DNA of 64,000 nucleotides from Escherichia coli. GTDB lineage: Bacteria; Pseudomonadota; Gammaproteobacteria; Enterobacterales; Enterobacteriaceae. Below are positions 31,760 to 31,870 of the stretch, in pieces (position 1 is the first letter of the stretch; each line of letters opens with the position of its first letter). The translations under genes and the position numbers were made by a program. The notes beneath the pieces are model-generated. The model searched no databases, was not told the origin of the DNA, and saw only the letters and a program-made list of their open reading frames with translations. The stretch lies in assembly GCF_003334305.1 (NCBI RefSeq), contig NZ_QOWS01000002.1; one strand, written 5' to 3'.

Positions 31760-31769
31760 TACAAGCATA

Positions 31770-31862
31770 TAAGCCTGATAATGGGCGGTTGGCCTGATAA
31801 GGCGTTTACGCCGCATCAGGCCGCCTGCACCGATTGCCGGATGCGACGTAACCGCATCCGGC
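31770..31862. repeat. REP/BIME palindromic elements downstream of rluC
   Basis: GCCTGATAAGGCGTTTACGCCGCATCAGGC (31792-31821) and GCCGGATGCGACGTAACCGCATCCGGC (31836-31862), typical REP palindromes. Confidence 0.65.
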
Positions 31863-31870
31863 GCAAACAA

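Follow-up and report, generated by a model that had tools for sequence, protein, structure and literature searches.

What are the palindromes that occupy three intergenic spacers of the 64-kb stretch of E. coli DNA analysed here (hereafter, the window), and how much of the layout and strain variation of these spacers do they account for? The window is colinear with the K-12 chromosome from the flg operon to ycfJ (MG1655 1.1445-1.1685 Mb, by gene order), and its ORF list places the first spacer (site 1), of 111 nt, between the convergent genes rluC (30800-31759, plus strand; stop codon 31757-31759) and yceF (31871-32494, minus strand; stop codon 31871-31873). The second (site 2) separates ycfP (end at 51545; stop codon 51543-51545) from ndh (51945-53249; stop codon 53247-53249), which are arranged in tandem, and the third (site 3) lies between ndh and ycfJ, again in tandem, with ycfJ starting near 53476. 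Using a 601-nt query for each site, we found a locus match in 5,426 of 5,426 complete E. coli genomes, and the annotated flanks of these matches (rluC/yceF, ycfP/ndh and ndh/ycfJ) confirmed the gene names rluC, ycfP, ndh and ycfJ assigned in a first-pass annotation, which had described the palindromes as typical REPs.

We are highly confident that the three flagged spacers contain members of the REP (palindromic unit) family of E. coli, some of which are paired as BIMEs. The clusters are textbook E. coli REP/BIME repeats, a feature already described, and the correct label mainly serves annotation: It avoids calls as terminators, sRNAs or IS ends, and it accounts for part of the spacer lengths. 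What our analysis adds is a per-unit inventory, which separates canonical copies, GTAG-less copies and merely REP-derived palindromes, and a view of the variation at these loci as REP-internal indels, unit presence or absence, IS1397 insertion and repeat replacement at flgF-flgG, not copy number.

Membership in the REP family

Palindromes were present at all three ranges noted earlier, with ends that differed by only a few bases. The flagged spacers hold five canonical units (31788-31822, 51599-51633, 51646-51673, 53261-53295 and 53312-53349), which match the y, z2 or short-type consensus; together with a pair between flgF and flgG, the window has seven REP units, and two additional perfect hairpins bring the palindromes to nine. 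A canonical unit is a 28-38-nt imperfect palindrome in which a foot, GATAAG, the inner stem, CGCATC and the complementary foot follow one another, with an internal two-base bubble. We give unit orientation GTAG-first, following Ton-Hoang et al. (PMC3333891). The canonical units are without exception extragenic and lie 3' of stop codons, in the convergent rluC/yceF spacer and in the tandem ycfP-ndh, ndh-ycfJ and flgF-flgG spacers.

As consensus queries, we used those of Nunvar et al. (Table 1; PMC2817692), the REP that was co-crystallised with TnpA_REP (PMC3479197) and the Stern forms. A blastn-short search of the whole 64 kb gave matches at E<0.01 only at 20510-20544, 31791-31817, 51605-51630, 53264-53289 and 53312-53349, and the E-values against the published consensus sequences, confined to four sites, ranged from 3e-10 to 4e-3. 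When globally aligned to the y, z2 and short consensus, canonical units reached normalised scores of 0.30-0.60, as compared to -0.14 ± 0.09 (99.9th percentile, 0.17) for random 44-mers of the window. Alignment to REP families, on which the first-pass annotation had staked its reading, thus came out in its favor, with five palindromes aligning to the published y, z2 or short families. The folds of the spacer RNAs had z-scores of -3.5 to -5.7, a level reached by none of 200 shuffles, and the full-length unit hairpins had predicted energies of -19 to -25 kcal/mol. In these folds, the full-length y/z2 units that start at 20510, 31788, 51599 and 53312 displayed an outer stem, a 2x2 bubble and an inner stem; in the degenerate unit at 53261, the bubble was reduced to 1x1, and the short units at 20446 and 51646 kept the GATAAG/CGCATC arms while their MFE folds lacked the full hairpin. 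Changes in the foot were compensated between copies (CCGG/CCGG, CCTG/CAGG, CCCG/CGGG, GTCGG/CCGAC and GGCGG/CCGCC). Chance palindromes were rejected as an explanation on the basis of the consensus E-values, the alignment null and the fold shuffles.

REP is a well-known short palindromic repeat with hundreds of copies across the E. coli chromosome. The two units that we queried alone recurred as dispersed repeats in all E. coli genomes, and each genome holds at least dozens of copies of the family. As a reference for the two short units, we used TGTAGGCCTGATAAGCGTAGCGCATCAGGCA, taken as the short-type REP consensus; a genome collection search found it at 100% identity in at least 40 places per genome, and because of this abundance we regard it as a valid reference for these units. 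The short type is presumably the one named "z1". A loose regular expression for the REP core (GATAAG...CGCATC with a complementary foot) yielded 10 matches versus 4.4 expected in simulated sequence and is non-specific, and we therefore relied on consensus alignment and genome-wide repetition.

Units and strain variation at the three flagged sites

At site 1, the canonical unit GTTGGCCTGATAAGGCGTTTACGCCGCATCAGGCC (31788-31822, plus strand) is an inverted repeat with a y-type core and a CTGA/TCAG foot, which matches the TnpA_REP-crystallised REP at E=7e-8 and carries GTTG instead of GTAG. Queried alone, it was found in a median of 33 places per genome across the 5,426 genomes. Upstream of it lies a 9-nt match to the consensus, GCCTGATAA (31773-31781, no strand), a REP-arm fragment that forms a direct repeat of the left arm of the adjacent REP. 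On its other side, a 13-nt linker leads to the perfect hairpin at 31836-31862, a degenerate hairpin that is the only BIME partner at this site. In O157, site 1 has an 11-bp deletion between two CTGATAA repeats. Only 7 of the 5,426 genomes lacked a match over at least 80% of the site 1 query, and strain 042 is among those seven. The gap in its match is occupied by an element annotated as "IS3-like element IS1397 family transposase", inserted between window positions 31807 and 31808, i.e., in the loop of the site 1 REP; the junctions read ...GATAAGGCGTTT joined to TGAACTGAACCCC... on one side and ...GGGGTGCAGTTCA joined to GTTTACGCCGCATCAGG on the other, with GTTT on both sides as a duplication. 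Clement et al. are said to have reported insertion of IS1397 into the PU loop in 1999. That IS1397 inserts specifically into E. coli REPs is experimentally established (PMC1525189), and the insertion in strain 042, as one natural instance, is independent support for site 1 as a REP.

Site 2 contains a y-type unit, GTGGGTCGGATAAGGCGTTCACGCCGCATCCGACA (51599-51633, plus strand), which folds as expected of the type, shows 26/26 identity to the published y consensus (E=3e-10) and carries the tetranucleotide GTGG. A 34-nt stretch of it was matched at 100% elsewhere, e.g., on a plasmid, and the 601-nt query that contains it hit a median of 5 places per genome, as seen by megablast with 28-mer seeding. 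Head-to-head with this unit, across a 12-nt linker, stands the short REP GTCGTCCTGATAAGAGGCGCATCAGGCA (51646-51673, minus strand), with a score of 0.33 to the short-type consensus and no inner stem. Strain B has 8 additional bases that restore the inner stem of this short unit, and K-12 and O157 have a CCTAC tail on it where the window has GACGAC. In strain RIVM_C037794, a 69-bp deletion extends from the right arm of the perfect hairpin at 51556-51587 to the head of the short REP.

A side observation concerns window positions 51674-51720, located 3' of the ycfP-ndh cluster and upstream of the ndh promoter region. This segment occurs as two divergent haplotypes, one shared by the window and strain B and the other by K-12, O157 and strain 98200.

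Site 3 has a y-S-z2 arrangement resembling that of BIME-2. Its degenerate y-type unit (53261-53295, minus strand), an inverted repeat that is 92% complementary (E=0.004; score 0.37), begins 12 nt after the ndh stop codon and has CCAG in the GTAG position. A 16-nt linker (53296-53311, no strand) separates the tetranucleotide ends of the pair, and it is followed by a z2-type unit with intact GTAG, GTAGGCCTGATAAGACGCGTTAAGCGTCGCATCAGGCA (53312-53349, plus strand), assigned by the Stern consensus: Positions 53312-53348 showed 0 mismatches to the 37-nt consensus, with 0 matches in 100 shuffles. Each of the 5,426 genomes had at least 40 places that matched the z2 unit, and 3,707 of them (68%) had the site 3 linker together with an intact z2 unit. 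In K-12, the left arm of the z2 unit is shortened by a 17-bp deletion, and the linker diverges strongly. About 10 of 26 linker positions in this allele differ from the window, against flanks with hardly any differences, a pattern that suggests a segment replacement rather than point mutation.

Inverted pairs, i.e., BIMEs, are thus formed by 51599-51633 (plus) and 51646-51673 (minus) at site 2, by 53261-53295 (minus) and 53312-53349 (plus) at site 3, and by 20446-20473 (minus) and 20510-20544 (plus) in the flg operon. The first-pass annotation had attributed the unexpectedly long spacers to the REPs. This holds fully for the first spacer, in which the REP cluster covers 90 of 111 nt, and only in part for the second and third, where the clusters cover 118 of 399 nt and 89 of 226 nt. 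The expectation that REP copy number would vary among strains was not borne out either. Spread samples gave spans of 584-610 nt for the 601-nt queries at the three flagged sites (584-601 nt at site 3, with no tandem expansion in spread samples of the 5,426 genomes), and in the sampled strains we found no tandem BIME-2 array or copy-number change at these sites; the variation took the form of small indels, one unit present or absent and a rare IS. In strain alignments, the indel end points fell in REP-internal repeats, and indels that end in such repeats have been described for BIMEs (PMC3333891).

A fourth REP site in the flg operon

All three intergenic sites reported earlier hold REPs, but the window has four such sites, the one between flgF and flgG (spacer 20418-20588) having been overlooked. 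Here, a REP pair spans 20446-20544 and lies inside the flgB-J operon rather than at a 3' end. It consists of a short-type REP-like unit, ATAGACCCGATAAGCTTGCGCATCGGGC (20446-20473, minus strand; score 0.30 to the short-type consensus), a 36-nt linker (20474-20509, no strand) read from the sequence, and a y-type unit with intact GTAG, GTAGGCCGGACAAGGCGTTTACGCCGCATCCGGCA (20510-20544, plus strand; E=3e-10 to the consensus, and the corresponding fold). Within the linker, AATCAATAAATTG (20485-20497, minus strand) fits the IHF consensus WATCAANNNNTTR perfectly; K-12 has one mismatch in the IHF core. With a short unit, a long linker with an IHF match and a y unit, the site has the layout defined for BIME-1 in PMC3333891 and is a candidate member of this type. 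By BLAST, the linker matched only its own locus, a search that short diverged L motifs would escape.

The flg pair was present in 3,477 of the 5,426 genomes. In the remaining genomes, e.g., O157 ATCC 43889, an unrelated segment of ~120 bp with CTCGCCCCTTTGGGGAGAGGGTTAGGGTGAGGGG replaces it. This segment is another dispersed repeat, found in a median of 15 places per genome, and it appears to resemble boxC.

Relation to described REP and BIME types

The units in the window share with the REP/PU types y, z1 and z2 (Stern 1984; Bachellier; Ton-Hoang 2012, PMC3333891) a common length, the bubbled imperfect palindrome and the GATAAG/CGCATC arms, and they are likewise extragenic, high-copy and targeted by IS1397. 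They differ in that GTAG is found in 2 of 7 units, one unit is without inner stem, and two symmetrical single-copy hairpins, probably derivatives rather than members, lie nearby. BIME-2 elements, composed of inverse y and z2 units with a short S linker and usually arranged in tandem arrays, are resembled by site 3, where the tetranucleotide ends face each other across 16 nt, and by sites 1 and 2, with their head-to-head pairs and 12-13-nt linkers. Unlike BIME-2, however, each site has a single pair, without tandem amplification in the sampled strains, and the partners at sites 1 and 2 are degenerate. The flg site resembles BIME-1/RIB-RIP (z1 and y, separated by a long, well conserved L linker in which an IHF site is frequent) in its short unit, its 36-nt linker with the IHF match and its y unit with GTAG. 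It differs in that BLAST detected no similarity of the linker to other genomic copies and in that its position is within an operon. A further likeness is to the Pseudomonas REPINs, RAYT-mobilised REP doublets (PMC3116915), which likewise are non-autonomous inverted REP pairs with a short spacer. Their sequence family differs, and the loci in the window bear no sign of recent mobility, since their positions are fixed in >99% of genomes.

Two perfect single-copy hairpins

Two palindromes in the flagged ranges depart from the canonical form. One, GCCGGATGCG-ACGTAAC-CGCATCCGGC (31836-31862, no strand), is an inverted repeat that forms a perfect 10-bp hairpin 8 nt from the yceF stop codon; the other, CGCATCAGGTA-N10-TACCTGATGCG (51556-51587, no strand), is an inverted repeat that forms a perfect 11-bp hairpin 10 nt after the ycfP stop codon. 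Calling the palindromes typical of REP was right for five in the flagged ranges, but not for these two, which are single-copy and atypical: The former was single-copy in 5,423 of 5,426 genomes and the latter in all 5,426. The hairpin at 31836-31862, which has one stem mismatch in K-12, consists of two REP "head" arms, and the one at 51556-51587 has the REP head motif (CGCATCAGG / CCTGATGCG) as its sole REP feature; both are without GATAAG arm, bubble or GTAG. Relative to the 99.9th percentile of the alignment null, the first has a marginal score, 0.29, and the second, at -0.11, is at the level of the null and fails to match the REP consensus.

We read both hairpins as, at best, REP-derived remnants that were rearranged such that two "head" arms face each other, where 31836-31862 is probably the degenerate inverted partner of the site 1 REP and 51556-51587 may be what is left of a junction between two head-to-head REPs. 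This reading is based on the exact head-motif arms, the canonical REP neighbors, the spacing at sites 1 and 2, and the end point of the 69-bp deletion. Alternatively, the two hairpins could be independent, locus-specific 3'-end RNA elements that share the GCCNGATGCG word with REPs through convergence or chance, which we consider unlikely. Such independence would fit their occurrence once per genome, the alignment of 51556-51587 to the REP consensus, which is like that of random sequence, the short distance of the hairpins to stop codons (8 and 10 nt) and their presence in practically all of the 5,426 genomes. Yet, both hairpins directly adjoin canonical REPs, and their arms are exact REP head motifs, with a 12-nt match, CGTCGCATCAGG, and with GCCGGATGCG on both arms. 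Furthermore, the 13-nt spacing to the REP head at site 1 mirrors the 12 nt of the y/short pair at site 2, the right arm of 51556-51587 recombines with the short-REP head in the 69-bp deletion, and the sequence conservation of the hairpins is not above the E. coli background.

Under the preferred reading as REP remnants, there is a slim chance that the two hairpins were exapted as locus-specific 3'-end elements and are not inert debris. If so, they could act, for example, close to the stop codon by stalling terminating ribosomes or by defining the mRNA 3' end, and the bubble and GTAG would have been removed by selection, placing the hairpins beyond the reach of the transposase. REPs within 15 nt of stop codons were reportedly described by Liang et al. 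in 2015.

Similar perfect hairpins built on the REP head word were observed at 1485-1513 (TGCCGGATGC-N9-GCATCCGGCA) and 3727-3749 (TTGCCGGATG-CGTGC-CATCCGGCAA). Both are located in spacers that follow 3' ends and are similar to 31836-31862; they may be REP remnants or plain terminator stems.

Terminators and mobile-element ends as alternatives

The first-pass annotation had cautioned that the palindromes should not be mistaken for terminators or for mobile-element ends. As GC-rich hairpins with strong predicted folds, located 8-28 nt downstream of stop codons, they could at first sight pass for intrinsic (Rho-independent) terminators of rluC/yceF, ycfP and ndh rather than repeats. We regard this as highly improbable, because neither strand has a T/U run after any of the hairpins and a terminator scan of both strands returned 0 sites in 31700-31950 and 0 in 51500-53500; the canonical units are, moreover, dispersed repeats, unlike locus-specific terminators. 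The caution against terminators accordingly stands for the intrinsic type, which the scan found absent, but not in full generality, since partly Rho-dependent attenuation has been published for REPs.

A reading of the clusters as the ends of a conventional mobile element, or as what is left of one (a MITE or the terminal inverted repeats of an IS), has virtually no chance of being correct. The clusters do contain inverted repeats, and one strain has an IS at site 1, but the three spacers of the window contain no transposase ORF, and each unit is self-complementary and forms a hairpin within 28-38 nt, unlike terminal repeats, which would enclose a segment. The element in strain 042 has its own TG...CA ends and a 4-bp duplication and, since it sits in the REP loop with these, the REP is its target and not its end. 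The distinction from mobile-element ends also needs to be qualified, in that REPs are themselves substrates of RAYT/TnpA_REP and are targeted by IS1397 (PMC3333891, PMC1525189).

Transposase recognition and proposed present-day effect

GTAG is intact in only 2 of the 7 units, those at 20510 and 53312, and the other units carry GTTG (31788), GTGG (51599), GTCG (51673, minus strand), CCAG (53295, minus strand) and ATAG (20473, minus strand) in its place. Other strains have GTAA at site 2 or an intact CTAC on the short unit of this site. According to the literature, RAYT/TnpA_REP, the gene for which is located outside the window, elsewhere on the chromosome, spreads and rearranges REPs as single-stranded hairpins and requires a 5' GTAG and a stem bubble. 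In vitro, mutation of GTAG or removal of the bubble abolishes binding and cleavage by TnpA_REP (PMC3333891). Because so few units kept GTAG, most of the copies in the window are probably fossils that are no longer recognised as TnpA_REP substrates, a status that fits the fixed REP position in nearly all genomes.

REPs have been credited with mRNA stabilisation, topological insulation and the binding of gyrase, IHF and Pol I (PMC3333891). For the copies in the window, transcription, stabilisation, attenuation and gyrase, IHF or Pol I binding are extrapolated from other REPs. On this basis, the likeliest present-day effect is at the RNA level, where the hairpins would most likely protect the rluC, yceF, ycfP, ndh and flgF messages: Located in 3'UTRs or within an operon, they would slow the 3'-to-5' exonucleolytic decay of the upstream message, and they may partly attenuate read-through at ycfP|ndh, ndh|ycfJ and flgF|flgG. 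In a 2026 preprint, REP325 is shown to attenuate in a partly Rho-dependent manner and also to stabilise the message upstream of it; genome-wide, REP effects were found to be context-dependent, with no uniform effect on mRNA half-life (bioRxiv 10.64898/2026.03.23.713779).

Annotation of the region

The density of four REP sites in 64 kb is about as expected from the 355 REP elements annotated in 4.6 Mb (PMC4550694); the 2026 preprint counts 697 annotated palindromic units in MG1655. The K-12 RefSeq record has no REP repeat_region features across the region. A whole-window Rfam scan at gathering thresholds returned no family at the REP sites; its only matches were rne5, an element of the RNase E 5'UTR (30252-30588, minus strand), the sRNA SraB (32449-32617, plus strand) and the PyrC leader (8471-8520, minus strand), which are expected K-12 features.
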